A stretch of DNA of 64,000 nt from Eledone cirrhosa (lineage: Eukaryota): NCBI GenBank assembly GCA_964016885.1, contig OZ024746.1, positions 70,804,001 to 70,868,000 on the forward strand. The letters run 5' to 3'. Positions 1,709-32,341 of the stretch are shown one piece after another. The first letter of the stretch is position 1; each line of letters starts with the position of its first letter. The notes under the pieces were generated by a model that saw nothing but the letters and a program-made list of their open reading frames with translations, made no database searches and was not told the DNA's origin. Made by a program: the position numbers and the translations under genes.

Positions 1709-4700
1709 GAGGATGGGATGGGTGGTGTAGGTATCCTACTAACTGACAAGTGGGTAGAAAAGGTAATCTCAGAGAATAGGGTGAATGCAAGAATCATTAA
1801 ACTCAGACAATCCCTGAATAAAATAATTTCCACAATAATATCAGCTTACACACTCCAATCGAGGTTGCCAGAGGAACTTAAGGATAGGTTTTAATAGTCC
1901 CTAATGCACACTAGTGCTCTAACAAACGACAATGACTTCCTAATCATTGCAGGAGATTTTAAATGTAGGTAAACACCGTGACGGCTTCTATAGAGTTCAT
2001 GGAGGCCATGGGGTTGGCACAAGAAATGAAGAAGGATTCAGGCTTCTAGAATTCTGCGATGCCAATGACATGTCGATATGTAACACAAACTTCAAAAGAC
2101 CCGACAACCACCTGATCACCTATAGATCAGGGGACCATTCTAGTCAGATAGATTTTATCCTCATCAGAGGACGTGACAGATGGACGGTCATAAACACAAA
2201 AGCCTTCCCTAGTGAGGAATGTACCTCCCAACATAGCTTAGTTGTCAGCGACCTCATGGTCAGAACTAGACGAACCTGGAGAAGAAATATCTGGAAGCTG
2301 AAAGATCCCTCAGCCAGTAACAGATTTAAAGATATTTTACTCAATGCCTATGACAGTAAAGAAGAACAGATAGACATTCAATGTAGAAGAGCACTGGGTG
2401 TTCCTAAAAAATAACTTACTAAAGGCGACGGATGAGATCTGTGGCTGGAGTAAGACCACATGCAGGAGGAGAGTGACTTGTTGGTGGAACAATAAGGTAG
2501 ATGAGGCAGTTAAGGCCAAGAGACAGGCATGGAAAGAATGGAAGAACGGGGGAAGCAGGGTACATTACATAGAGACCAGGAGGGAAGCTAGGCGACAAGT
2601 ATACTTAGCTAGGAGAGAAGCAGAGGATGGAAAATTCAAGCATGTTTTGCAACGTAAGGACCAGAAACAGGAAGTGTTCAAGATTGCAAGGCAGTGTCAG
2701 AGAGAATTGTGATGTCATTGGATAGAAGTGTATCTGGAATGATAAAGGTGAGCTTGCCCTTACAAGTGCTGAGAAGAAAGATGCGTGGAAGAGCCATTAT
2801 GATAGATTACTAAATGAGGAGAATGCATGGGAAGAAGAGATCCTACCCCAAGTAGACCCTATAGAGGGGCCAGCAGTACAAGTCAGCAGCAGCGTAGTAA
2901 GTAAGGCAATCAAAGATATGAAGACAGGGAAGGCAACCGGTCCATCGGGTATAGCTGCCGAGATGCTGAAGACATCTGTGTCGGTAGGTCACACCATAAC
3001 CCCACGCATTGTTAACCAGGTAATACTAGGTGCCATACCAAAGGATTGGGGCAGTAGCATCATTGTCAACTTCTACAAAGGTAAAGGTGATGCACTAGAT
3101 GGAGGAAACTATAGAGGTATAAAGCTGATGGACCAGGTCATGAAAGTAACAGAAAGAGTTATAGCACAGTTGATTAGGGACCGGATGAAACTAGATGAGA
3201 TGCAATTTGGGTTTGTGCCAGGAAGAGGCACCACTGATACCCTCTTCCTTGTGAGGCAGTTACAGGAAAAGTACCTAGCTATAAGTAAGCCACTCTACCT
3301 GGTATTCGTCGATCTCGAGAAAGCCTTTGACAGAGTTCCCCGTGCTATAATCTGGTGGGCTCTTAGAAAACTAGGAGTAGATGAATGGCTTGTGAAAGCT
3401 GTACAAGCCATGTATAGGGGAGCAGTCAGCAAAGTTAGGATTAGCAATGAGTATAGCGAGAAATTTAGCTTACAGGTTGGTGTCCACCAGGGCTCTGTTC
3501 TTAGCCCTCTCCTATTCATCATAGTCCTGCAGGCAATAACGGATACCTGTGGGAACTCCTGTATGCTGATGACCTCGCACTTATAGCTGAATCTATGGTA
3601 GAACTAGAGAAGAAATTCCAAACTTGGAAGCAGAGACTAGAAAGAAACGGTCTCAAAGTCAACCTGACAAAGACTAAGGTCCTTGTAAGTAGACGAGAAA
3701 ACAGAACCCAGATCCCCTCAGGGAAATGGCCTTGCTCAGTATGTAGGAAAGGTGTAGGCAGGAACTCCATTCTCTGCCCCAAATGCAAACAATGGGTACA
3801 CAAGAGATGTAGCGGGATCTCAGGAAGCTTAACTTAGGCTTCACATGTAGCAGCTGTGCTGGGACAGCAAACAGCCACAGGAAACAAGTACCACCAAACT
3901 CTGGGAGGGCTCTGTAGAAACAGTAGACAGCTTCTGCTACCTAGGTGACCGAATTAGCAGCGGAGGTGGGTGTTCGGAAAGTACACTAGGGTAAGAATGG
4001 GATGGAAGAAGTTCAAGGAGCTACTGCCACTGCTGGCTGCAAAAGGCTTTTCCCTCAAAATGAAAGGCAGACTGTATGATGCGTGTATACGAACAACAAT
4101 GTTACATGGTAGTGAGACCTGAGCGCTGTCTGTGGAAGACTTGCGTAGATTAGAAAGAAACGAAGCCTGCATGCTCTGATGGATGTGTAATAGTAATATA
4201 CGCGAAGGGCAAAGCATAAAGGAATTGAGAGAGAGACTGAGCATAAGAGGAATCAAATGCTGTGTGCAGGAGAGGCGGTTGCGTTGGTATGGACATGTGA
4301 TGCGTATGAAGGATGACAGCTGCATAAAAAGGTGCAGAGCAGTGGAAGTCGATGGAAACCGCGGAGTGGGGAGACCCAAGAAGACCTGGGATGAGGTAAT
4401 AAAAGCCGACCTTACCCAATTACACCTCTCAAAGGCGATGACCCACAACCGTGACCTCTAGCGTCACACAGTAATACAGAAGACCCGACCCCCCACGGAT
4501 ACAAGCCGAAGCTGAAGCATATAGACAATATTCCCCCACACCCTCCCACTGCAAAGTGGTTGGGGAGGTGCCATGGCAAAAAAGCACCCAGCGCCCACAC
4601 TGTAAAGTGGACGTGTAGGCACCACGGAAAAAAAGCACCCAACACTCACTGTAAATGAGGTTGGTGTTAGGAAAAGCATCCAGCTGTAGAAATCAAGCCA

Positions 4701-4810
4701 GAATCAGTTCCCGTATAAGCAAGACAAGGTCTGCCGACCGGACACTGCCCACAACAGGACAACCCGTCTAACCCATGCTAGCGTGGAAGAACGGTGATGA
4801 TGCTGATGAT
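1709..4810 (+). mobile_element. RTE-clade LINE, subfamily A; 5'-truncated and decayed (APE endonuclease, RT, PHD-like finger, 3'UTR, (GAT)n tail)
   Basis: Frameshifted segments: GVGILL, SAY, GHGVGTRNEEG, SQIDFIL and QHSLVV (APE); KATGPSGI, NYRGIKL, QFGF, FVDLEKAFDRVPR, GVHQGSVLSPLLF and LYADD (RT); RLRWYGHVMR and GRPKKTW (RTE C-terminus). Ends CCATGCTAGCGTGGAAGAACGG followed by GAT-like repeats. Confidence 0.93.

Positions 4811-17478: not shown

Positions 17479-17536
<58 letters not shown>
17479..17536. repeat. (TC)n microsatellite immediately 5' of Tx1 copy 1
   Basis: Read directly; a matching (TC)n at 23198-23234 follows the element. Confidence 0.95.
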
Positions 17537-17539
<3 letters not shown>

Positions 17540-17751
17540 ATCTCTTGGATGGACACACGTGTGAAACTTGGTGGGTAAGTTTTGCCTAAATTTCTATAGA
17601 AATTCTCAACTGTGAACCTTCATTTTTATACCAATTTGTAGAGGGACTGCCAGGTCAAATTTTGATCTGGACAGTCTCTCAAAATATTCTACGCCTTTAG
17701 GCGAAATAGTTCATAGAAATCTTTTTGGAAAAACTAACATTTAAAAAAAAA

Positions 17752-19517
17752 ATGGCTGAAGCTTCTTCACCAACATTCGAAGGAGGAAAGGGGAAGATAT
17801 GCTTACAGCTTCCCCCTACCACTGTCATAGTAGCAGATGTCAAAGACAAAGGTCAGCAAGAGGAAGGATTTTCTCCACCTGCTGACTGACAACTTGACGA
17901 TGCCATGGCAACAAACCAAAACCAAAAGTGAAACAATTAACAAAAACAACACAACCAGTGGCACCAGCAACAACAACAATGCTATGAACGAAAACAACAC
18001 CAACAACAATAACAACAACAAGAAGACCAATAACTGCAACAAGGAAGTAAACGACAAAATATCGTTTGCGCAAACCGTAAAGAAAATGGTAAGCTACACT
18101 CTGGTAGATATTTCAAATGCAAATGAGCTTTTGAATAACGCCAGACAGTACATAACTTTTGGGGAGAACGGATCATTCTCCATAAACTCTCCCCCAGATT
18201 TGCGAAGAGAAGCTGCTTTGAAAACTGTAGTTTTCAGGACAGTCTCAAACAAAACCTGAAAACTGACTCAACTTTCACAAGGCGAAATTGAGTTGGTTTT
18301 AGAAGATGCCTTGAAAGACATTGCTTTCATTCAGAAGAGTAGACTCTACGGGAGTTTATCCATTTTGATGAAAGACCAACTGACTGCACAGAAATATTCT
18401 GTGTCGCCAATTGTGTCACCATTCACCTTTTTCCCCAGTTACATGGGGAAAAGAACACAGAAAATAAAAATCAAAAGTATCACACCAAATATTGATATTT
18501 GGTGGGTACTATGTGGATTTTTAAACCTCGAAAAAGACTCAATAATATCGGTAGGTAAGTCCTCCGGCGACCTGTTCAGCAGAACTAGCCTGGAAATTCT
18601 GGTCAAAATGACACCAGAACGAATAGCTAGGATCCCAGAACGTGTGCTGCTGGATGGCTTATATACATAAACATTTCGGTTGAGAGTAGGCGGCCCTCAT
18701 GTTACCACTGCCTAAGCAGGGGTCACCTGAGAGCTTCCTGTCCTCGGCTAACTAGCCCAAAAAAGGCATTACTGCCAACACCTGCAACACTAGCAATCGC
18801 CGCCACCACCACCACCACCACAACAACAACAACATAAAAAAATAGTGACAACAAAACAAATGACAAACACAGTCCCACCCAACTCCTCCCCACCTAAAAC
18901 AACTCCAGAAACACCCACACACATAACAGTTCCCCAAAATGTACCCCTCCCCAACCTCATCATCGTCACCCAGTGACGATGAGGGAGAGCCTTTCCGACC
19001 AGTAAAAAGAATAAAGAAAAGACATAACACAAACAAAAATGCAACAAACACACAAACACCAACACAAGCGATGCAAACAGCACAAACAAAAACACCCCCT
19101 CCTGAAAACAAAACACCTACTACAAAACGTAAACACACACAAGAACCACAGACAAAAAGCAACACAACAAAAATGTTACACCTACATAAATACTAACAAT
19201 AAAACTTTAACAGACACCATATATAAAACCCTTCGGTGGAGACCGAAGGGAAAACTTTTACACACTCTTCGGAGAATCTTAATCTTAAAATGATTAGGAT
19301 TTCCATAGACACACAAACAGTTAAAAGAAAAATTTCCTAATGACGTAAGTAACCCCTGCATCAAACCCTATAACCGCGTCCTTTTGAAATATTTCCCCAC
19401 CCCCACCCCACCTGACACCCCTCCCCACCAAACATCTCCATCCCCACCCCACCAAACAACCCCTCCAACACTCCCATGGAAATTGTGCAGCCTGGTCCCC
19501 AGGAGACGAAGAGGTGA
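17752..19517 (+). pseudogene. Tx1 ORF1 (gag-like nucleic-acid-binding protein), frameshifted
   Basis: ATG at 17752; track segments 17837-18259 and 18293-18670; perfect CX2CX4HX4C knuckle CYHCLSRGHLRASC at 18700-18741; T/P/N/K-rich tail; probable stop TGA at 19515-19517. Confidence 0.72.
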
Positions 19518-19557
19518 GTGATTTCTTTTCCTCTTCTTTTAACTTTTCAGCACCAAC

Positions 19558-22500
19558 ATGGCCAATATAAGAGTTGGATGTGTGAATCTACGCGGCCTGG
19601 GGATGCCCTGGAAACAGGGCAAACTCTTAAACGACCTCAGGTCGCACAGTATGGATGTAGTAGCCATTTGCGAGTCCAGGATCCACAGCGAGCGACAACT
19701 GGCCCCCATCTTCGACGACTTTGAGATCTACGCATCTCTCTGTCAGCCGGAAGGTGGGGGTGGGGTTGCCGTTTTGCTGCGGAAACACCTGGACCTCTTA
19801 ACACAGACGGTACATCTGGACCCGGAAGGTCGATTGGTGGTCTAGACGTTGTCGGTAGTGAAGGTGGAGCCTTCAGGCTGGTGGCCGCATATGCCCCATT
19901 CGGGACACCGCGGCCAGACTTCTTCAAACGTCTAGAGACTTTTCTGGGAATGTCCCGCTCCCTGTTAGTGGGGAACTGGAATGGAATCTTAGATGCACGT
20001 TGGGACCATGTGGGAGCATGTCCCGATAGAGGGGGGGTGGGGGGTGTAACAGCCTCAAACAGTTAATCGGCCGATTTGACCTGGCCGATAGATATCGACT
20101 AGATTTTCTGACTGTGCCACTGTGGACGTGGACTAATTGTAGCGGAACATCTAGATCGTACCTAGATAGGGTTCTAGTTAGAAAGAAGGATAGGGACATG
20201 TTAAGCTGTCCACAAATGTTCATGGTTGCCTATTCAGATCACAAATTAGTGACCTGCTTAGTCAACCTTGACAAAACCCATAGACAGGGACCCGGCTATT
20301 GGAAGCTGAACTTGTTACCGACATGCAAAGCCTACAGTAGACGGATTAGCACTTTAGTTAAGCAGCACTTGACGGGGAGCCATTGTCAACAACAGATGGT
20401 GGTACTCTCTCAAGAGGGCAGTTAGATTAGACTCGATAGGTTTTAGTAAAGAATTAGTGTTAGATAGAAATAAGACCGAAAAGGAATTGGTAGATAAAGT
20501 AGAAGAGGCACTTAGGAGTGGCAACGTAGCCAGCGTACTAGCGACGAGAACGGCCTTGGACCAGTTCTTCGACGCAAAGCATGAAGGCTGCGTTGTCAGA
20601 AGCAAAATACGTGCTCTGGGAAACGAGGGAGCCAAAGCTGTCAGCTGGGCCTGAGTGACGGAGGTGAAAGTGGCAACAAGTCCACGATTCGGTCTTTGAA
20701 GGACCAAGACGGACGCGTGATACGTGCGCCGAAGCAGATGTGTGTGGCTTTTCAGCAGCACTTTGCTCAACTGTTCGGGCAGAGCGGCGTGCCGGAGGAG
20801 CTATGGATTTCAGTCCATACCTTGACGGCCTACCGCGACGGCCTACCGCGACTCTCGGACAGCGAGGCGAAGTTCTGCGAAAGGCCAATTTCGGCCGCTG
20901 AGATAGGGGACGCGCTGAGCCAATGCGGCAAACGAAACTCTCCAGGTCTCAACGATCTACCCTACGAATTTTATGTAGCAATGCCGGACTTGTTCTCCGG
21001 TCTCCTGCAACTGGCAGCAGAACGGGAGAATTCCCAGTTCTGTGACCAAGGGCGTAGTCATGTTAGTCAGGAAGGACGAAAATAAGGGGGATGACATAGG
21101 CAACTTCTGGCCCATAACTCTGCTAAACACAGAGTTAAAGATTTGGGCCAAGGTGTTGGCAAAGAGGCTGGCGCTTGTCATTGAAAACCTGGTGGGAGAA
21201 GCGCAGACATGCGCAATCCCGACTAGGTCCATACACGACAACCTCCACCTCATGCGATACATCATAGAGAGGGTAGGGTGTAAACCTGGCTTCGGTGGGG
21301 CTCTGATCAACTTGGATCTGTCTAAGGCTTTCGATAGGGTTGACCATCGTTACCTGGATGCGGTGCTCGAGGCGGCAGGCTTTGGACCTGGGTTCAGGGG
21401 CTGGATTGCTGCAATGCACAGCAGCAACATCTGCTCAAGGGTCAAGGTGAACGGCTACCTCTCGGAGCCGTTCCATATCACGCGATCCATCCGACAGGGA
21501 TGCCCTCTCTCCTCCCTTCTGTACGTATTGACTCTAGAGCCACTATTGCGGAAGTTGGAGCTATTGCAGGGCATCCCTTTGGAACCGGGACTGCGAAAAG
21601 TGGCGTTGGCCTGCGCCGACGACGTGACAGTAATGGTGTCGAGCACCTTGCAAATCGGGGAGGTCGGCACCTTACTGGAGGAATACGAAAGGTTCACAGG
21701 AGCGAAGCTGAACCTGGACAAATCTGTTGGTTTGCAACTTGGAACATGGAGAGGCAAACCGATGACGTCGTCGGACGCTGGACGGAAGGACTGGTAAAGC
21801 TGCTCGGGGTCTGGTTTGGTCTGGACCTCCAGGTGGAGAAGAACTGGAATGAGGTGACTGCCAAGGTGTTTGCGCACACCCAGAAGTGGGCCGAGCACAA
21901 ACTATCCTTGAAAGTTCGAGTGGAGGTGGCGAAACTTTTATAGCGTCCGTCATCTACTACCGCTTGACCGTCGTGCCTTGTCCAGCCAAAACGCTCACCA
22001 AAATGGAGTGCGCACTCTTCCAATTCCTTTGGAAGAAACAGGCTCCTTTGGTGAGAAGATCCATCTGCTGCCAACACCCTTCAAATGGAGGGCTGGGGAT
22101 GCCGTGGTTGACGATGCGCAAACACGCGCTCAGGCTGCGGCACCTCCACATATTCCTCACCAGACAACCGGTGTGGACCCCGTTCGTGAGGCGAGCCTTC
22201 CCACGACTCGTCTCGCTGACCGAGCTGCAGGCCTGGGTCAAGCAAAGACTGAGGAAAATGGGCGACTGGCACATCCAATGTGCTCAGGCGCTCACAGTCC
22301 TCTGGCAAACAGACCCGGCGATCAGTGGAGACTCCACTTCGACATTCTATAGAGGGTTGGTTTGCAGCAAGTGCGACAACGCGCTCGGAGAAACTCTGGG
22401 CGTAGAGGAGGCCGAACTGGCCAGTTTGTTCGGTAGGACCTTCCGCCCGGGTCCAATGGACAACTTCCAAAAGTCCCTGGCCTGGCAGTGCTACCGAGGA

Positions 22501-22982
22501 GCTCTACCAGTTCGAGATAAGCTCTACAGACACGGGCGCCCCGGCAGGGACCCTTCGAAAAAGATTTGTCCGAGATGCGTGAGTGACGAGGAAACCATTG
22601 CGCACGCATTTGTACACTGCCTGGGCGTTAGCCCCACAGGTCGGTATGTAGAACGACTATTGTCGCACGTGGGACCAATCCAGTTGCCACCGAGTCCATT
22701 GTCATGATCAAACCGCCACCCTCCTTCAAAAACGAGGGAGAGGCGGTTTTCCTATGTGTTATGGCTATGGTGAAAGAGGTTATATGGTGGACGAGGTTAA
22801 AAGGGCTGAGGTCAGACACCTTTCTCTCCGGCGAGCAACTGATTAGTTTTTTCAAATATCATTTTGGAAGAAGAATCAGGATGGAGAGAGAGGTGCTATA
22901 CTCCAGCAAATTTTATAAAAGGTGGGTGAATGTGGCAAAGATGGCCCGAGTGGTTGGGCCTTCTCTCTATATAAGCCTGTAG
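19558..22982 (+). pseudogene. Tx1 ORF2 (APE endonuclease, RT, C-terminal zinc finger), multiple frameshifts
   Basis: MANIRVGCVNLRGL, ICES, GGGVAVL, SYLDRVL, SDHKLV, DLSKAFDRV and RQGCPLS motifs. Catalytic YADD is changed to CADD (~21612). A 13-bp duplication sits at 20824-20849. Confidence 0.92.
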
Positions 22983-23197
22983 GTAGAGGAAGGGAGTACT
23001 CACTCTTGGTACTCCTGGAGATGAGGGTTGTACATTTTTTCGGGGGTGTACAACCCATGTGTAACGCCTCCCCCCCATTGGGGATTTCAATTGTTATTTG
23101 TTATTTTATTAATAGTTTTATTTTCATATACCTGTATGTAAACTCCCCATTTGTATTTGTTCCCTTCTTTTGTGCCCTTGTGGCTAATAAAGAAATT

Positions 23198-23234
<37 letters not shown>

Positions 23235-23779
23235 AGCTTCCTTTTTCTCTGTCCCTCTTTTTCACTGGCCCACTCTCCTCATCACTTTTTCTCTTCCTAT
23301 TAATCTCTCATTCTCTGTATGTCTTTATAACTATCTCTCATGATAGTTTAACCCTTTTAATATCAAACCACCTGAAACCACCCCTGGTTCTATGATACAA
23401 AACTAATCTGAAAACCTTCCATCATAATTTCATGCAAAAACTTTCGTTATGTTCCAAATACCAACTTTATAATAGGTAGCACTAGAAATACGATAATGAA
23501 AGTGTTAACACCCTTCATTCTGTGTCGCTATTTTCTCTCCACTCTATCCCTCTCTTTGTCACTGATCTCTAACTATTTCTCTCTTTGTTGCTGTTCTCTT
23601 TGTTTATCACTGCACTCGCTCTCTCATGCTCTTTACCACATAATTCTATCATCCTCATTATTTGTTGCACACACAAGAGGGAGAGGGAGCGAGATGGCTT
23701 TTATTTGTAACTCTAACCCTAACCCTCCCTCTCTAACTCTGTCTGTTGGCTTCTCTACCTGCATTTTTCTTGAACTGTC

Positions 23780-24485
23780 ACTCTGTCTGTCACTCTATCT
23801 GTCTGTCTTGATCTATCTATAAGAAAGATATCTATATATATCTATCTCTTAGTGTGTCAGTCAATTTATATCTGTCTGTCTGTCTCTCTATGAATATCTA
23901 TCTGTCTGTCTATCTATCTATATCTGTCTGTTTATATCTATCTATCAATATCTATCTATCTATCTATCCTTAGTTACGTCCCTTTACGATCTGAGGTCAA
24001 ATCCCGCCGAGGTTGACTTTGCCTTTCATCCCTTACGGGGTCGATAAAATAAAGTACCAGTAATGCTCTGGGTAATTGCTGGCCTGGTGCCAAAAGTAGA
24101 AACAATATCTATCTATCTAGCTATCTTTCTTTCTGTCTGTCTTTCTATATCTGTCTTTCTCTCTTGATCAATCTATACCTATCCATCCATCTATCTAGCT
24201 GCCTGTCTATTTATATCTATCTATCTATCTGTCTATTTATATCTATCTATCTATCTGTCTATTTATATCTATCTATCTATCTATCTATCTGTCTATTTAT
24301 AACTATCTATCTATCTATTTATATCTATCTATCTATCTATTTGTCTATTTATAACTATCTGTCTGTCTATTTATATCTATCTATCTGTCTGTCTATTTAT
24401 ATCTGTCTGTCTATCTATCTGTCTATTTATATCTATCTATCTATCTATCTATCTATTTCTATCTATCTATCTATCTATCTATTTA

Positions 24486-24524
<39 letters not shown>

Positions 24525-24587
24525 TTCTATCTATCTATCTATCTATCTATCTATTTATATCTATCTATCTATCTATCTATCTATCTA
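23780..24587. repeat. (TCTA)n/(TCTG)n microsatellite field with a SINE fragment at ~23970-24105
   Basis: Read directly from sequence. Confidence 0.92.
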
Positions 24588-25466
24588 ATTCTATAGAGGG
24601 TTGGTCCGCAGCAAGTGCGACGACGCGCTCGGTGAAACTCTGGGCGTGGAGGAAGATGAACTGGCCAGTCTGTTCGGTAGGACCTTCCGCCCGGGACCGA
24701 TGGACAACTTCCAAAAGTCCCTGGCCTGGCAGTGCTACCGAGGAGCTCTACCAGTTCGAGACAAGCTCTACAGACATGGGCGCCCGGGCAGGGACCCTGC
24801 AAAAAAGATCTGTCCGAGGTGCGTGCGAGACGAAGAAACCGTCGCGCACGCATTCATACACTGCCCGGGCGTCACTGACCTGTGGGGCTATGTGGAACGA
24901 CTATTGTCGCGGGTGGGACCAATCCAGTTGACCACCGAGTCCATTGTCATGATCAAACCGCCACCCTCCTTCAAAAACGAAGGAGAGGCGGTTTTCCTTT
25001 GTGTGATAGCTATGGCGAAAGAGGTTGTATGGTGGACAAGGTTGAAAGGGCTGAGGTCAGACACCTTTCTCTCCGGCCAACAACTGATTCTTTTTTTCAA
25101 ATACCACTTTGGAAGAAGAATCAGGATGGAGAGAGAGGTGCTGTACCCCAGCAAGTTTTATGAAAGGTGGGTGAAAGTGGCGAGAATGGCCCGAGTGAAT
25201 GGGCCTTCTCTCTATATCAGCCTGTAGGTTGAGGAAAAGGAGGAGGAGAGGAAAGGAGTACAAGCTCTTCGTACTCCTGGAGATGAGGGTTGCACATTTT
25301 TTTCGGGGGTCTGTGTTACCCATATAAACTGTCTCCCTCTATTGGGGAAAATCGACTAACTTTTAAATTCCATCTGTGATAACATTTTACACGTTTTTAT
25401 TGTATGTAAACTTCCCCCTTTGTATTTGTCCCCTTCTTTTGTGCCCCTGTGGCTAATAAAGAAATA
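24588..25466 (+). mobile_element. Tx1 copy 2, 5'-truncated (879 bp)
   Basis: Collinear with 28050-28928 with about 10 substitutions by eye; ORF2 C-terminus with CPRC...HAFIHC; AATAAA at 25455; flanked by (TCTA)n. Confidence 0.95.
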
Positions 25467-25507
<41 letters not shown>

Positions 25508-25511
<4 letters not shown>

Positions 25512-28500
25512 GGACCCGGAGGGTCGACTGGTGGTCCTAGACGTTGACGGTAGTGAAGGTGGAGCGTTCAGGCTGGTGGCCGCATATGCCCCATCCGGGA
25601 CACCGCGGCCAGACTTCTTCAAACGTCTAGAGACTTTTCTGGGAACGTCCCGCTCCTTGCTTTTAGTGGGGGACTGGAATGGAATCCTAGATGCACGTTG
25701 GGACTATGTGGGAGCATGTCCCGATAAAGGGGGGTGTAACAGCCTCAAACAGTTAATCGACCGATTTGACCTGGCCGATAGATATCGACTAGATTTTCCG
25801 ACTGCGCCACTGTGGACGTGGAGTAATCGTAGCGGAACATCTAGATCGTACCTAGATAGGGTTCTAGTTAGAAATAAGGATAGGGACATGTTAAGCTGTC
25901 CACAAATGTTCATGGTTGCCTATTCAGATCACAAACTAGTGACCTGCATGGCCAACCTTGATAGAACCCATAGACAAGGACCCGGCTACTGGAAGCTGAA
26001 CTTGTCGTTACCGACAAGCAAAGCCTACAGTAGACGGATTAGCACTTTAGTTAAACAGCACTTGACAGGGGCCATTGTCAACAACAGATGGTGGTACTCT
26101 CTCAAGAGGGCAGTTAGATTAGACTCGATAGTTTTTAGTAAAGAATTAGCGTTAGATAGAAATAGAACCGAGAAGGAACTGGTAGATAAAGTAGAAGAGG
26201 CTATTAGAAGTGGCAACGTAGCCAGCGTGCTAGCAACGAGAACGGCCTTGGACCAGTTCTTCGACGCAAAGCACGAGGGCTGCGTTGTCAGAAGCAAAAT
26301 ACGTGCTCTGGGAAACGAGGGAGCCAAAGCTGTTAGCTGGGCCCGAGTGACGGAGGCAAAAAGTGGCAACAAGTCCACGATTCGGTCTTTGAAGGACCAA
26401 AACGGACGCGTGATACGTGAGCCGAAGCAGATGTGTGCGGCTTTTCAGCGGCACTTTGCTCGGCTGTTCGGGGGGAGCGGCGCGCCGGGAGAGGCTATGG
26501 ATTTCGGTCCATACCTCGACGGCCTACCGCGACTCTCGGACAGCGAGGCGAAGTTCTGCGAAAAGCCGATTTCAGCCACTGAGATAGGGGACGCGCTGAG
26601 CCAATGCGGCAAACGCAAATCTCCAGGTCTCGACGGTCTACCCTACGAATTTTACGTAGCAATGCCGGACTTATTCTCCGGTCTCCTGGAAGCGGTCTAC
26701 TGCAACTGGCAACAGAACGGGAGAATTCCCAGTTCTGTAACCGGGGGCGTGGTCACACTAATCAGGAAGGACGAGAATAAGGGGGATGACATAGGCAACT
26801 TCCGGCCCATAACTCTGCTAAACACAGAGTTACAGATTTTGGCCAAGGTGTTGGCAAAGAGGCTGGCGCTTGTCGTCGAGAACCTGGTGGGAGAAGCGCA
26901 GACATGCGCGATCCCGACCAGGTCCATACACGACAACCTCCACCTCATGCGATACATCATAGAGAGGGTAGGGTGTAAACCCAGCTTCGGTGGGGCCCTG
27001 ATCAACTTGGATCAGTCTAAGGCTTTCGATAGGGTTGACCATCGTTACCTGGATGCGGTGCTCGAGGCGGCAGGCTTCGGACCCGTGTTCAGGGGCTGGA
27101 TTGCTGCAATGCACAACAGCAACATCTGCTCAAGGGTCAAGGTGAACGGTTACCTCTCGGAGCCGTTCCATATTACGCGATCCATTCGACAGGGATGCCC
27201 TCTCTCCTCCCTTCTGTACGTACTGACTCTCGAGCCACTACTGCGGAAGCTGGAGCTATTGCAGGGCATCCCTCTGGAACCGGGACTGCGGAAAGCGGCG
27301 TCGGCCTACGCCGACGACGTAACAGTAATGGTGTCGAGCGCCTCGCAAATCGAGGAAGTCGGCACCTTACTAAAGGAATACGAAAGTCTCACAGGAGCGA
27401 AGCTGAACCGGGACAAGTCCATCGGTTTGCAACTCGGATCGTGGAGAGGCAGACCGATGCCTTCCGATGGCGTCGTCGGACGCTGGACGGAAGGACCGGT
27501 AAAGCTGCTCGGGGTCTGGTTTGGTCCGGACCTCCAGGTGGAGAAGAACTGGAACGAAGTGACGGCCAAGGTGTTTGCACTCACCCAGAAGTGGGCCGAG
27601 TGCAAACTATCCTTGAAAGGTCGAGCGGAGGTGGCGAACACTTTTATAGCGTCCGCCATCTACTACCGCTTGACCGTCGTGCCTTGTCCAGCCAAAACGC
27701 TCGCCAAAATGGAGCGCGCCCTCTTCCGATTCCTTTGGAAGAGGCGGGCTCCTTTGGTAAGAAGATCCATCTGCTGCCAACACCCTTCTAACGGAGGGCT
27801 GGGGATGCCGTGGTTGACGATGCGCAAACACGCGCTCAGGCTGCGACATCTCTACGTATTCCTCACCGGACAACCGGTGTGGGCCCCGTTCGTGAGGCGA
27901 GCCTTCCCACGACTCGTCTCACTGACCGAGCTGCAGTCCTGGGTCAAGCAGAGACCGAGGAAAATGGGCGACTGGCACATCGAATGTGCTCAGGCGCTCA
28001 CAGCCCTCTGGCAGGCGGACCCGGCGATCAGTGGAGACTCCACTTCGTCATTCTATAGAGGGTTGGTCCGCAGCAAGTGCGACGACGCGCTCGGTGAAAC
28101 TCTAGGCGTGGAGGAAGATGAACTGGCCAGTCTGTTCGGTAGGACCTTCCGCCCGGGACCGATGGACAACTTCCAAAAGTCCCTGGCCTGGCAGTGCTAC
28201 CGAGGAGCTCTACCAGTTCGAGACAAGCTCTACAGACATGGGCGCCCGGGCAGGGACCCTGCAAAAAAGATCTGTCCGAGGTGCGTGCGAGACGAAGAAA
28301 CCGTCGCGCACGCATTCATACACTGCCCGGGCGTCACTGACCTGTGGGGATATGTAGAACGACTATTGTCGCGGGTGGGACCAATCCAGTTGACCACCGA
28401 GTCCATTGTCATGATCAAACCGCCACCCTCCTTCAAAAACGAAGGAGAGGCGGTTTTCCTTTGTGTGATAGCTATGGCGAAAGAGGTTGTATGGTGGTCA

Positions 28501-28928
28501 AGGTTGAAAGGGCTGAGGTCAGACACCTTTCTCTCCGGCCAACAACTGATTCTTTTTTTCAAATACCACTTTGGAAGAAGAATCAGGATGGAGAGAGAGG
28601 TGCTGTACCCCAGCAAGTTTTATGAAAGGTTTTTGAAAGTGGCGAGAATGGCCCGAGTGAATGGGCCTTCTCTCTATATCAGCCTGTAGATTGAGGAAAA
28701 GGAGGAGGAGAGGAAGGGAGTACAAGCTCTTCGTACTCCTGGAGATGAGGGTTGCACATTTTTTTCGGGGGTATGTGTTACCCATATAAACTGTCTCCCT
28801 CTATTGGGGAAAATCGACTAACTTTTAAATTCCATCTGTGATAACATTTTACACGTTTTTATTGTATGTAAACTTCCCCCTTTGTATTTGTCCCCTTCTT
28901 TTGTGCCCCTGTGGCTAATAAAGAAATA
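25508..28928 (+). mobile_element. Tx1 copy 3, 5'-truncated within the APE domain
   Basis: Begins ATCTGGACCCGGA (matches copy 1 at ~19814); AATAAA at 28917; (TCTA)n on both sides. Confidence 0.95.
25510..28689 (+). CDS. Uninterrupted Tx1 ORF2 segment (partial APE, RT, zinc finger) lacking the N-terminal ~85 aa
   Basis: GDWN, YLDRVL, SDH, KSPGLDGLP, NFRPITLLN, DQSKAFDRV, RQGCPLS, YADD and CPRCVRDEETVAHAFIHC; no stop codons over ~3.18 kb; no native start codon. Confidence 0.9.
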
Positions 28929-29053
28929 TATCTATCTATCTATCTATCTGTCTATTTATATCTATCTGTCTGTCTATCAGTCAGTCTTTCTGTCTGACTG
29001 TCTATTCTGTCAGTCCTGTCTATCTATTTAGCTAGCTATCTGTCTGTATGCCT

Positions 29054-31615
29054 ATTGAATTTAGTAAGGTTCTAGCTGCGGATAGGAATAGGAAGGAAAG
29101 GGAGCTAATAGATAGAGTAGAAGAGGCAATTAGAAGCGGCGACGTGGCCAGAGTGCTAGCGTCGAGAACGGCTTTGAGCCAGTTTTTCGACGCGAAGCAC
29201 GAAGGCTGCGTTGTCCGAAGTAAAATACGTGCTCTAGGGAACGAGGGGGCCAAAGCTGTTAGCTGGGCCCGCGTGACAGAGGCCAACAGTGGAACTAAAT
29301 CCACCATCCGGTCTTTGCGAGACCTGGATGGACGGGCGATTCTTGAGCCTAAGCAGATGTGTGAGGCCTTTCAAAGGCACTTTGCCCGACTGTTCGGGAG
29401 GGGCGGGGAGCCGGTTGGAAACGTGGACTTCGGTCCATACCTCGACGGCCTGCCGCGCCTCTCGGACAGGGAGGCGAAGTCTTGCGAGGAGCCGATTTCG
29501 GCCGCTGAGATAGAGGACGTGCTGGGCCAATGCGGCAAACGCAAATCCCCGGGTCTCGATGGTCTTCCTTACGAATTATATCTAGCTATGCCGGACTTGT
29601 TCCCCGATCTCCTCGAGGCGGTCTACTGCAACTGGCAACAGAACGGGAGAATTCCCTGTACTGTGACCAAGGGCGTAGTCACGCTAGTGAGGAAGGACGA
29701 GAACAAGGGGGACGAAATAAGTAACTTCAGGCCCATAACTCTGCTAAATACAGAGTTACAGATTTTGGCCAAGGTGCTAGCAAAGAGGTTGGCGCTTGTC
29801 GTGGGCAACCTGGTGGGAGATGCGCAGACATGCGCTATCCCGTCCAGGTCCATCCATGACAACCTCCACCTCATGCGATACATCATAGAGAGGGTTGGGA
29901 ACGAACCCGGCTTTGGTGGGGCTCTGATCAACTTGGATCAATCTAAGGCGTTCGATAGGGTCGACCATGGTTACCTGGATGCGGTGCTAGCGGCGGCAGG
30001 CTTCGGACCTGTTTTCAGGGGCTGGATCACTGCTATGCACAGCAGCCGCATCTGCTCTAGGGTCAAGGTGAACGGCTACCTCTCGGAGCCGTTCAAAATC
30101 GCGCGGTCCATCCGACAAGGGTGCCCTCTCTCCTCCCTTCTGTATGTGTTGACTCTCGAGCCACTACTGCGGAAGTTGGAGTTGTTGCAGGGCATCCCTT
30201 TGGAACCGGGATTGCGGAAAGCGGTGTCAGCCTACGCCGATGATGTGACAGTAATGGTGTCGACGGCCTCCGAAATCGAGGCGGTCGGCACCTTACTGGA
30301 GGAGTACGAAAAGTTCACAGGGGCTAAGCTGAACCGGGACAAGTCGATCGGTTTGCAACTCGGCACGTGGAGGGGCAGACCGATGCCCTCCGATGGCGTC
30401 GTCGGACGCTGGACGGAGGGCCCGGTGAAGTTGCTTGGGGTCTGGTTCGGACCGGACCTCCAGGTGGAGAAAAACTGGGCGGAGGTTACGAACAGGGTGT
30501 TTGCACTGACCCAGAAGTGGGCCAGTTGCAAACTATCCCTGAAAGGTCGGGCGGAGGTGGCGAACACTTATATAGCGTCCGTCATCTACTACCGCCTGAC
30601 CGTAGTGCCCTGCCCAAGGGAAACCCTCACCAAGATGGAGCGCGCGCTCTTCCAATTCCTTTGGAAGGGGCGGGCTCCTATGGTGAGGAGATCCATCTGC
30701 TGTCAACACCCTTCGAATGGAGGGCTGGGGATGCCGTGGCTAATGATGCGTAAACACGCATTAAGGCTACGGCACCTCTACGTATTCCTCACCGGACAAC
30801 CGGTGTGGGCCTCGTTTGTGAGACGAACCTTTCCCAGACTCGTCTCACTCACCGAGCTGCAATCCTGGGTCAAGCAAAGACCGAGAAAACTGGGCGCCTG
30901 GCACACTGAGTGTGCCCAGGCGCTCACCGCCCTCTGGCAGGCGGATCCGGTTATCAGTGGAGACTCCACCGCAACATTCTATAGAGGGCTGGTACGCAGC
31001 AGGTGCGACGACGCCCTCGGAGAAGCCCTAGACATGGAGGAGGACGAACTGGCCAGCCTGTTCGGTGGGACATTCAGCCCGGGACCTATGGACAACTTCC
31101 AGAAGTCCCTGGCCTGGCAGTGCTACCGAGGGGCTTTACCCGTTCGAGAAAGGCTCTACAGACACGGGCGCCCGGGTAGGGACCCCGCCAAAAAGATCTG
31201 TCCCAGATGCGTGTGCGACGAGGAAACCGTTGCACACGCATTGGTACACTGCTCGGGCGTAGCCGATCTGTGGGGCTATGTCGAACAACTGCTGTCAAGG
31301 GTGGGACCGATCCGGTTGACCACCGAGTCTATTGTAATGATCAAGCCGCCTCCCCCCTTCAAAGATGAAGCAGAGGCGGTGTTTCTGTGCGTAATAGCCA
31401 TGGCGAAAGAGGTTGTATGGTGGACGCGTCTGAAAGGACTGAGGTCAGGCACCTTTCTCTCTGGCCAACAACTGGTCCGTTTCTTCCGATATCATTTCGG
31501 AAGAAGGATCAGGATGGAGAGAGAGGTGCTGCACCCCAGTCGTTTTTATGAAAGGTGGGTGAAAGTGGCGAGAATGGCCCGTGTGAATGGGCCTTCTCTT
31601 TACATAAGCCTGTAG
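29054..31615 (+). CDS. Uninterrupted Tx1 ORF2 segment (RT and zinc finger; endonuclease lost)
   Basis: YADD, RQGCPLS and CPRCVCDEETVAHALVHC. The ATG at 29048 lies in the TSD and is not native. Confidence 0.88.
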   Translation: MEFSKVLAADRNRKERELIDRVEEAIRSGDVARVLASRTALSQFFDAKHEGCVVRSKIRALGNEGAKAVSWARVTEANSGTKSTIRSLRDLDGRAILEPKQMCEAFQRHFARLFGRGGEPVGNVDFGPYLDGLPRLSDREAKSCEEPISAAEIEDVLGQCGKRKSPGLDGLPYELYLAMPDLFPDLLEAVYCNWQQNGRIPCTVTKGVVTLVRKDENKGDEISNFRPITLLNTELQILAKVLAKRLALVVGNLVGDAQTCAIPSRSIHDNLHLMRYIIERVGNEPGFGGALINLDQSKAFDRVDHGYLDAVLAAAGFGPVFRGWITAMHSSRICSRVKVNGYLSEPFKIARSIRQGCPLSSLLYVLTLEPLLRKLELLQGIPLEPGLRKAVSAYADDVTVMVSTASEIEAVGTLLEEYEKFTGAKLNRDKSIGLQLGTWRGRPMPSDGVVGRWTEGPVKLLGVWFGPDLQVEKNWAEVTNRVFALTQKWASCKLSLKGRAEVANTYIASVIYYRLTVVPCPRETLTKMERALFQFLWKGRAPMVRRSICCQHPSNGGLGMPWLMMRKHALRLRHLYVFLTGQPVWASFVRRTFPRLVSLTELQSWVKQRPRKLGAWHTECAQALTALWQADPVISGDSTATFYRGLVRSRCDDALGEALDMEEDELASLFGGTFSPGPMDNFQKSLAWQCYRGALPVRERLYRHGRPGRDPAKKICPRCVCDEETVAHALVHCSGVADLWGYVEQLLSRVGPIRLTTESIVMIKPPPPFKDEAEAVFLCVIAMAKEVVWWTRLKGLRSGTFLSGQQLVRFFRYHFGRRIRMEREVLHPSRFYERWVKVARMARVNGPSLYISL

Positions 31616-31879
31616 GTGGAAAAGAGGAAGGAACGAGGGAGCACCCCCTCTCTGTGCTCCTGAGGAAAAGGGTTGCACACTTTTTTCGGGGGTGTGTGCG
31701 ACCCCCCAAGGCGCCTCCTCTCTATTGAGGATTTTGTTAAAAATTTTATTTTTTGTTATATCTTATTTTATTTTTATATTTTGTTATTGCCTCCTCCTTA
31801 TTGAGGACGCCTTTTTGTGTAAACTCCCCCCTTTGTACTTGTCCCACTTTTGGTGCCCTAGTGGCAAATAAAAGAAACT
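29054..31879 (+). mobile_element. Tx1 copy 4 (diverged subfamily), 5'-truncated, 17-bp TSD
   Basis: TATCTGTCTGTATGCCT at 29037-29053 and 31880-31896; AATAAA at 31867. Confidence 0.95.
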
Positions 31880-32341
31880 TATCTGTCTGTATGCCTGTCC
31901 TGTTTGTCCTGTCTGTTCTGCCTGTCAAGTCTATTGACATCTCTCTGTCAGCCTGTCTCACCTGTCTACATCTATCTATCTGTCTGACAGTCAGTCTAGC
32001 TATATGTATCTGCTTGTCCATCCATTTAACCAGGTCAGTCCCTGGTCCCTGCTGTTGTTAACATTCCCCAAACCACTACACTAACATTTCCATATTAGAC
32101 AACAACTGTCCACTCACATGCACACAATGGGGCACACGCTTCCACTTTATCACATCCAATGTGTATATGTATATATATATATATATATATATCATCATCA
32201 TCATCGTTTAATGTCTATCTTCCACGTTAGCATGGGTTAGACGGGAATTGTCCCACTCGAGGCAAGATTGGTCGGGTGACTGTGTCTCGCTCGTATAGGA
32301 CTATTTGGCAGGTTTTCTACAGCTGGATGCCCTTCCTAACA

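Follow-up and report, generated by a model that had tools for sequence, protein, structure and literature searches.

How a long interspersed nuclear element (LINE) with two genes expresses the second of them, and how it keeps its RNA intact in a splicing nucleus, is an open question outside mammals, and it is raised by a full-length but decayed Tx1-type LINE on the forward strand of Eledone cirrhosa contig OZ024746.1 (assembly GCA_964016885.1). The window analysed here comprises the 64,000 nucleotides at positions 70,804,001 to 70,868,000 of this contig; the element occupies window positions 17543-23195 and consists of a 5' untranslated region (UTR), a first open reading frame (ORF1), a spacer, ORF2 and a 3' UTR, with many stops and frameshifts. 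An earlier note on this DNA had placed splice donors at 17575 and 19514, an acceptor ending at 19550 and the ORF2 start codon at 19558, all of which are found there, and had proposed that these signals serve to express ORF2. According to the reading favoured here, to which a probability of about 0.45 is assigned, the donor motifs near the 5' end and over the ORF1 stop are selected binding sites for the U1 small nuclear ribonucleoprotein (snRNP) shared with a sister family. On this view most ORF2 protein would come from unspliced RNA that carries both genes, with RNA that skips ORF1 as a minor by-product. The donors would then be the selected part of the arrangement and the acceptors a labile one.

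Donor 1, TGG/GTAAGT (17572-17580), is complementary to U1 and scores 9.0 bits with an approximate donor matrix. It lies 32 nt inside the element, close to the 5' end as the earlier note had it, this end being fixed at 17543 by family contigs of sequencing runs X1 and X5 that start there. Donor 2, GAG/GTGAGT (19511-19519, 11.1 bits), does overlap the ORF1 stop, but the stop itself is ambiguous, being TGA at either 19515-19517 or 19519-19521. The U-rich spacer that follows (19520-19550) ends in an acceptor-like TTTTCAG at 19550, 37 nt from donor 2. This acceptor, called a textbook one in the earlier note, has 18 pyrimidines in 20 nt; it ranks first of the 173 YAG sites on the sense strand of the element, is one of three sites this strong among 1727 in the window, and is followed after 7 nt by the ORF2 ATG in a good context. 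An equal acceptor arose in 70 of 5000 shuffles of the 38-nt spacer and a slightly weaker one in 454. The leader left by a 17575-19550 join would contain a single ATG (17549), in frame with ORF2; in the unspliced sequence this codon opens an upstream ORF of nine codons (17549-17578), the TAA of which lies inside donor 1. Between 17543 and 19560 the hexamer GTRAGT occurs four times, against 0.34 expected (0 of 300 shuffles), and ORF1 contains further donor-like motifs missed by the earlier note, at 18089 (8.9 bits), at 18555 (18552-18560; 11.4 bits, above donor 1) and at 19345 (7.2 bits). The predicted hairpin at 19508-19536, in which donor 2 would be buried along with the first half of the pyrimidine tract, is not beyond what composition gives (101 of 1000 shuffles as stable), and a general hairpin of the ORF1 end with the U-rich spacer was rejected (mean z of -0.09 in eight relatives).

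Contigs of the element's own family came from four runs and three organisms, and the rows seen comprise 15 of 364 joints, 40 of 1553 substitutions and 12 of 167 indels, so that the absence of a row is weak evidence. No near-fixed difference at 17572-17581 or 19512-19560 appears among the 40 substitutions, and an X5 contig over 19486-19732 crosses donor 2 and the acceptor with three differences and no gap; for these reasons the donor and acceptor motifs are probably the majority state of the family and not private mutations. In one contig from organism B the tract, the TAAC and the context of the ATG are preserved but CAC stands in place of CAG, and the spacer varies in length by -3 and +2 nt among family contigs. 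Spliced retrocopies, with the GT..AG segment precisely lost, are absent from the 15 joints. The summed contig depth climbs sharply at 17610-17689 and at 19450-19560, the latter beginning some 100 nt ahead of the ORF2 start codon, which suggests that these segments are common to subfamilies with different ORF1s.

The evidence that carries the favoured reading comes from sister families, copies of which were found in one bacterial genome bin (G001: L081-L118, L125-L161). At least 17 contigs of this bin, up to 94 kb long, are of animal type and are contamination; they consist largely of head-to-tail arrays of intact Tx1-type elements, with 67 ORF2 starts and several subfamilies that have a common ORF2 and different 5' UTRs and ORF1 starts, and they offer a good system for studying array formation. 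The ORF2 of the main sister family is 41% identical to that of the window element, next to which the family forms a clade in a quick tree. In 64 of 64 copies its ORF1 ends in TAA G/GTAAGT; the ORF2 ATG lies 14 nt further on, and no acceptor intervenes. The motif GTAAG occurs once in the first 140 nt in 11 of its 12 5' UTR clusters, which belong to two unalignable types (shuffle chance 0.08-0.22 each; the twelfth cluster appears truncated), and in the six type-A 5' UTRs, with a mean column identity of 63%, no other invariant stretch is as long as that of the donor (10 of 400 columns); 21 rows scored as 'not donor' in the conservation table are antisense false anchors. A donor also stands 14 nt past the sister ORF2 stop, where GTAAGT or GTGAGT leads into a variable U/C tract and then a YAG 33-40 nt on in all 54 anchored copies; the distance is 36-37 nt in 36 of the 54, the same layout as at 19514-19550. 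Both of these post-stop donors lie at most 50 nt past a stop. Because donors recur in the sister family, both at the 5' end and by the ORF1 stop, the signals in the element are probably not due to chance; this much of the proposal that they are positioned to express ORF2 stands, together with the clean in-frame leader.

The view of the acceptor as a conserved part of the design is not supported. Neither related family has one ahead of ORF2, its AG is AC in the organism-B contig just described, the acceptor near the ATG of type-A 5' UTRs has changed from AG to GG in two of six, and no YAG is left in the 5' UTR of the L087 subfamily. Distant relatives point the same way. They were drawn from 80 metagenome loci, most of them 25-33% identical, of which 41 non-redundant junctions were used; the other 39 were near-duplicates, were incomplete at the 5' end or lacked a clear ATG. 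A strong acceptor precedes ORF2 in 0 of the 41. The 40 nt before ORF2 are richer in U than ORF1 (0.33 versus 0.20, p = 1.5e-5), and eight relatives carry a strong U tract there. None of these eight tracts ends in an acceptor, so that a U-rich spacer needs no splicing. Several distant L1-like loci (L049, L055-L060, L058 and L079) have an ORF1 stop that abuts or overlaps the ORF2 start (TAAATG, TAATG, TAGTATG), an arrangement typical of translational coupling.

The mechanism proposed under the favoured reading begins with the binding of U1 to the donor motifs. The gap of 37 nt between donor 2 and the acceptor would be too short for efficient excision, and U1 at donor 2, helped by the U-rich run behind it, may hinder recognition of the branch point, so that the acceptor would stay mostly silent and the RNA full length. 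The U1 sites may also shield ORF1, which is A-rich and contains three AATAAA motifs (18463, 19010 and 19198), from early polyadenylation. Ribosomes that end ORF1 would restart across the 36-40-nt spacer to make ORF2; such reinitiation would be the main route, as the 14-nt sister spacer implies. In RNAs with no U1 on donor 2, donor 1, or the motif at 18555, may join 19550 and give an ORF1-skipping RNA like the SpORF2 RNA of human L1.

The same U-rich spacers allow a plainer account, in which CAG stands by coincidence at the end of a reinitiation spacer of a sort common in the group, and stop codons, promoter motifs and the use of codons account for the donors. GTRAGT contains TAA or TGA, so that donors tend to fall at stops; the motifs at 18555 and 19345 fall in protein motifs common to relatives, the former encoding V-G-K, also in the Argonauta ORF1 relative, and the latter lying in FPxDV; eight of the 41 distant relatives have a donor of at least 7 bits within 90 nt of the ATG; and the donor in human L1 is maintained as a RUNX3 site (Larson 2018, PMC5860796). 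Chance of this kind is nevertheless considered unlikely, given that the sister family repeats the donors at three matching places, that GTAAGT and GTGAGT are exchanged there and that the donor is the longest invariant block. Of 40 distant relatives, 2 have a donor by the ORF1 stop; the control rate is 24 of 1036 windows, and donors after stops were rejected as a general trait of Tx1 or L1 elements (2 of 40 and 1 of 32).

The earlier note had suggested a subgenomic ORF2 RNA spliced from 17575 to 19550; in an extended version this RNA is programmed, ORF2 is made mainly from it and donor 2 is a regulated switch. The placing of the element's best acceptor just ahead of a good start codon, the single in-frame ATG of the leader, the conservation of the 5' donor in the sister family and the support that human SpORF2 lends to ORF2 function (Belancio 2010, PMC2896524) all fit this proposal. 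It is judged improbable all the same: related families express ORF2 without such an acceptor and the AG is missing in one organism-B contig, a stronger donor (18555) and two acceptors (17641 and 18438) intervene between donor 1 and 19550, and L1 ORF2 proteins act in cis, spliced L1 RNAs being dead ends (PMC5860796).

Could the 37-nt spacer itself be excised, to yield an ORF1-ORF2 polyprotein? It is bracketed by a consensus GT and AG, the sister 3' UTR module has equal length, and human intron candidates of 37-65 nt exist (PMC4463651). The 19513/19551 join announced in the earlier note is in frame, but only if ORF1 ends at TGA 19515-19517, the frame preferred by the composition of the tail (+9.4 versus -6.9 bits). 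The FPxDV motif, present in the ORF1s of Argonauta, Octopus sinensis and the sister family, shares the ORF2 frame and meets no stop until TGA 19519-19521, where removal of 37 nt breaks the frame. With an indel roughly every 135 nt in this copy, ORF1 may end in either frame. An intron of 37 nt would fall far below the 10% quantile of the lengths of introns in two molluscs, 113 and 198 nt (PMC13644364, supplement S14), the branch-like TAAC is only about 9 nt from the AG, and the family variant with a spacer shorter by 3 nt would give an intron of 34 nt. No protein fused in the order ORF1-ORF2 is present among the 120 matches listed (582-1854 amino acids), a weak search for longer proteins containing the ORF2 N-terminus or the ORF1 core found none, and P0076 and P0148, considered as the proposed fusion, were rejected, their gene models running from ORF2 to ORF1. 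Fusion is thus unlikely because of the very short intron and the two candidate ORF1 ends, and a polyprotein made in this way is given very little credence.

Real introns with other partners would be another way to use these donors. Donor 1 could join its nearest acceptor candidate (17619-17641; 14 pyrimidines in 20 nt) and remove a 67-nt 5' UTR intron, and donor 2 could join a downstream acceptor to leave an ORF1-only RNA, as in the long terminal repeat elements Copia and EVADE, the spliced gag-only RNAs of which lack pol. Type-B sister 5' UTRs retain donor and acceptor, and the sister donor after the ORF1 stop has conserved 3' UTR acceptors at about +50 and +250. In the window, however, donor 2 cuts before the ORF1 stop, the four 3' UTR copies have no common acceptor, and an acceptor at the ORF2 stop was dropped as the partner of donor 2 for its inconsistency across them. 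Spliced UTR introns should moreover vanish on retrotransposition, yet all sister copies keep them; in the sister arrays, none of the 64 ORF1 ends and none of the 54 ORF2 ends has lost a GT-AG segment. Such introns are regarded as highly improbable. Also unlikely, though less so, is a retrovirus-like balanced splicing in this Tx1 lineage, where a reusable 37-nt donor-tract-acceptor switch after a stop would choose between full-length RNA and RNA of a single gene, namely ORF2 for the octopod family and ORF1 for the sister family.

Against the reading of the donors as selected U1 sites, several points have to be weighed. Its evidence is sequence comparison throughout, the donor matrix is approximate, and the brake and shield functions ascribed to U1 belong to other systems. 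All sister copies come from one genome bin, and only three families are available, in two of which the pattern is present: the third, L115 (three copies), has a 3' UTR donor and neither an ORF1-stop nor a 5' UTR donor. The invariance of the sister ORF1-stop donor is weak by itself, its spacer varying at only 3 of 14 positions, and the match in the 37-nt layout was noticed post hoc. In type-B 5' UTRs the acceptor is retained through a CAG/TAG change and looks like that of a real intron, while the acceptor of the window element is unusually good, well placed and apparently the family majority state. Finally, ORF2 has no AATAAA or ATTAAA to protect.

The remaining features of the element are as follows. 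ORF1 (17752-19521, broken) comprises a region resembling an RNA recognition motif, a CCHC knuckle at 18697-18744 (zf-CCHC, E = 0.011, below the cut-off), a low-complexity tail and the FPxDV motif near 19330-19347; the relative P0165 has a likeness of 0.90-0.93 to ZCCHC3-RBD/CCHC clusters. The ORF1 expected of a Tx1 element has RRM-like domains and a CCHC knuckle in place of the coiled coil-RRM-CTD of L1. ORF2 (19558-22982, also broken) encodes an endonuclease, a reverse transcriptase and a C-terminal zinc finger (Exo_endo_phos, 7e-5; RVT_1, 6.6e-27; zf-RVT, 3.6e-6). A (TC)n microsatellite at the 5' junction (17480-17545, strand not assigned) is the likely target site, and AATAAA with a downstream (TC)n lies at 23186-23234. 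Three 5'-truncated copies follow on the same strand: copy 2 between (TATC)n tracts (24588-25467); copy 3 (25510-28930), which matches the main copy at 89% identity, has 1059 codons of open ORF2, looks young and is the copy relative to which the main one shows 25 gap openings; and copy 4 (29036-31880), 81% identical. None of them spans the ORF1-ORF2 junction. Window positions 17480-31930 thus hold four copies of one Tx1-type family head to tail, with only (TC)n or (TATC)n between, and all four end in (TC)n or (TATC)-type repeats, at this one locus. The closest named relatives are in Argonauta hians (ORF2 63%, ORF1 44%) and Octopus sinensis; the quick tree joins the element to P0001 and P0002 (Argonauta) with a value of 99 and to the sister families with one of 97. 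For O. vulgaris, 13 young L1-Tx1 families have been listed (PMC13282606). The Tx1 assignment fits the domain layout and targeting, and was made without a named Tx1 reference in the tree. The viral contigs searched hold no relative of the element, the genome contigs searched gave no match to the window's protein, and Rfam has no match within the element or in three sister loci.

Further observations concern the sister arrays and the rest of the window. The type-B 5' UTR donor lies inside an inverted repeat in three of four cases; at L082:3452-3526 it forms one arm of a repeat of about 14 bp that is predicted to be fully paired. The donor at L082:5988, after the ORF1 stop, and the acceptors at L082:9483-9530, after the ORF2 stop, could together remove the whole of ORF2 and leave an ORF1-only RNA. 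The sister 3' UTR at L082:2645-3355 has two AATAAA regions about 240 nt apart, and the element ends at the second. Elsewhere in the window are a decayed RTE-like LINE on the forward strand (1710-4800; reverse transcriptase domain, E = 6e-21) and minisatellites at 37151-39205 (70-nt unit of TGTAG/TGTGG pentamers), 46046-46809 (119- and 244-nt units) and 52215-53034 (18-nt unit, 97% identity).

Unspliced U1 sites that control splicing or polyadenylation are familiar from the NRS of Rous sarcoma virus, papillomavirus late 3' UTR elements, U1 telescripting and steric exclusion in alpha-tropomyosin. Like these non-productive sites, often accompanied by a U-rich run, the element presents a 5' splice-site motif. 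The literature searched, with most subscription papers, Repbase and most supplements outside its scope, yielded no description of non-productive U1 sites in Tx1 or L1 elements and none of splice signals in Tx1 elements, including donors kept at their 5' ends or stop codons. In its two ORFs, its ORF2 with an endonuclease, a reverse transcriptase and a zinc finger, and its microsatellite targeting, with copies flanked by (TC)n or (TATC)n, the element resembles the Tx1-clade LINEs Kibi, which targets (TC)n, and Koshi, which targets (TTC)n; these are fish families, and the accessible part of their description reports no splice signals (PMC4494074). The spacers of vertebrate L1 elements, T-rich in fish, have been discussed as sites of reinitiation or internal ribosome entry; they are mostly 250-1000 nt long, unlike that of the element, and the string 'splic' does not occur in the text of that study (Boissinot and Sookdeo 2016, PMC5381506). 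Drosophila TART is likewise a retroelement that uses host splicing, its introns lying in antisense RNAs (PMC1636488).

The closest parallel is human L1. The earlier note had contrasted the element with mammalian L1 as translated from an unspliced bicistronic RNA, a contrast that is incomplete: human L1 already makes SpORF2, an ORF1-skipping spliced RNA that supports ORF2 activity (PMC2896524), and combines conserved splice sites with mostly unspliced RNA and dead-end SpIREs (PMC5860796). An ORF1-skipping RNA is therefore of a known kind, whereas for donors kept near the start of Tx1 elements and at their stop codons the literature searched gave no earlier account. The SpORF2-type layout is present in the element, the ORF2 start of which is intact although ORF2 as a whole is broken in this copy: a donor near the 5' end and an acceptor before ORF2 would together remove ORF1, as do the human joins of 97 to 1837 and 290 to 1920 (PMC2896524, PMC5860796). 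It differs in belonging to an invertebrate Tx1-type element, in having its acceptor in a non-coding spacer 7 nt before the ATG with a second donor at the ORF1 stop ahead of it, and in that its splicing, like the U1 role proposed for it, is predicted from sequence. The human L1 splice sites have been viewed as tolerated accidents; donors kept at the 5' end and after stops across families with 41% ORF2 identity would, if the reading of selected U1 sites is true, point to purposeful recruitment of U1 by a lineage of LINEs.

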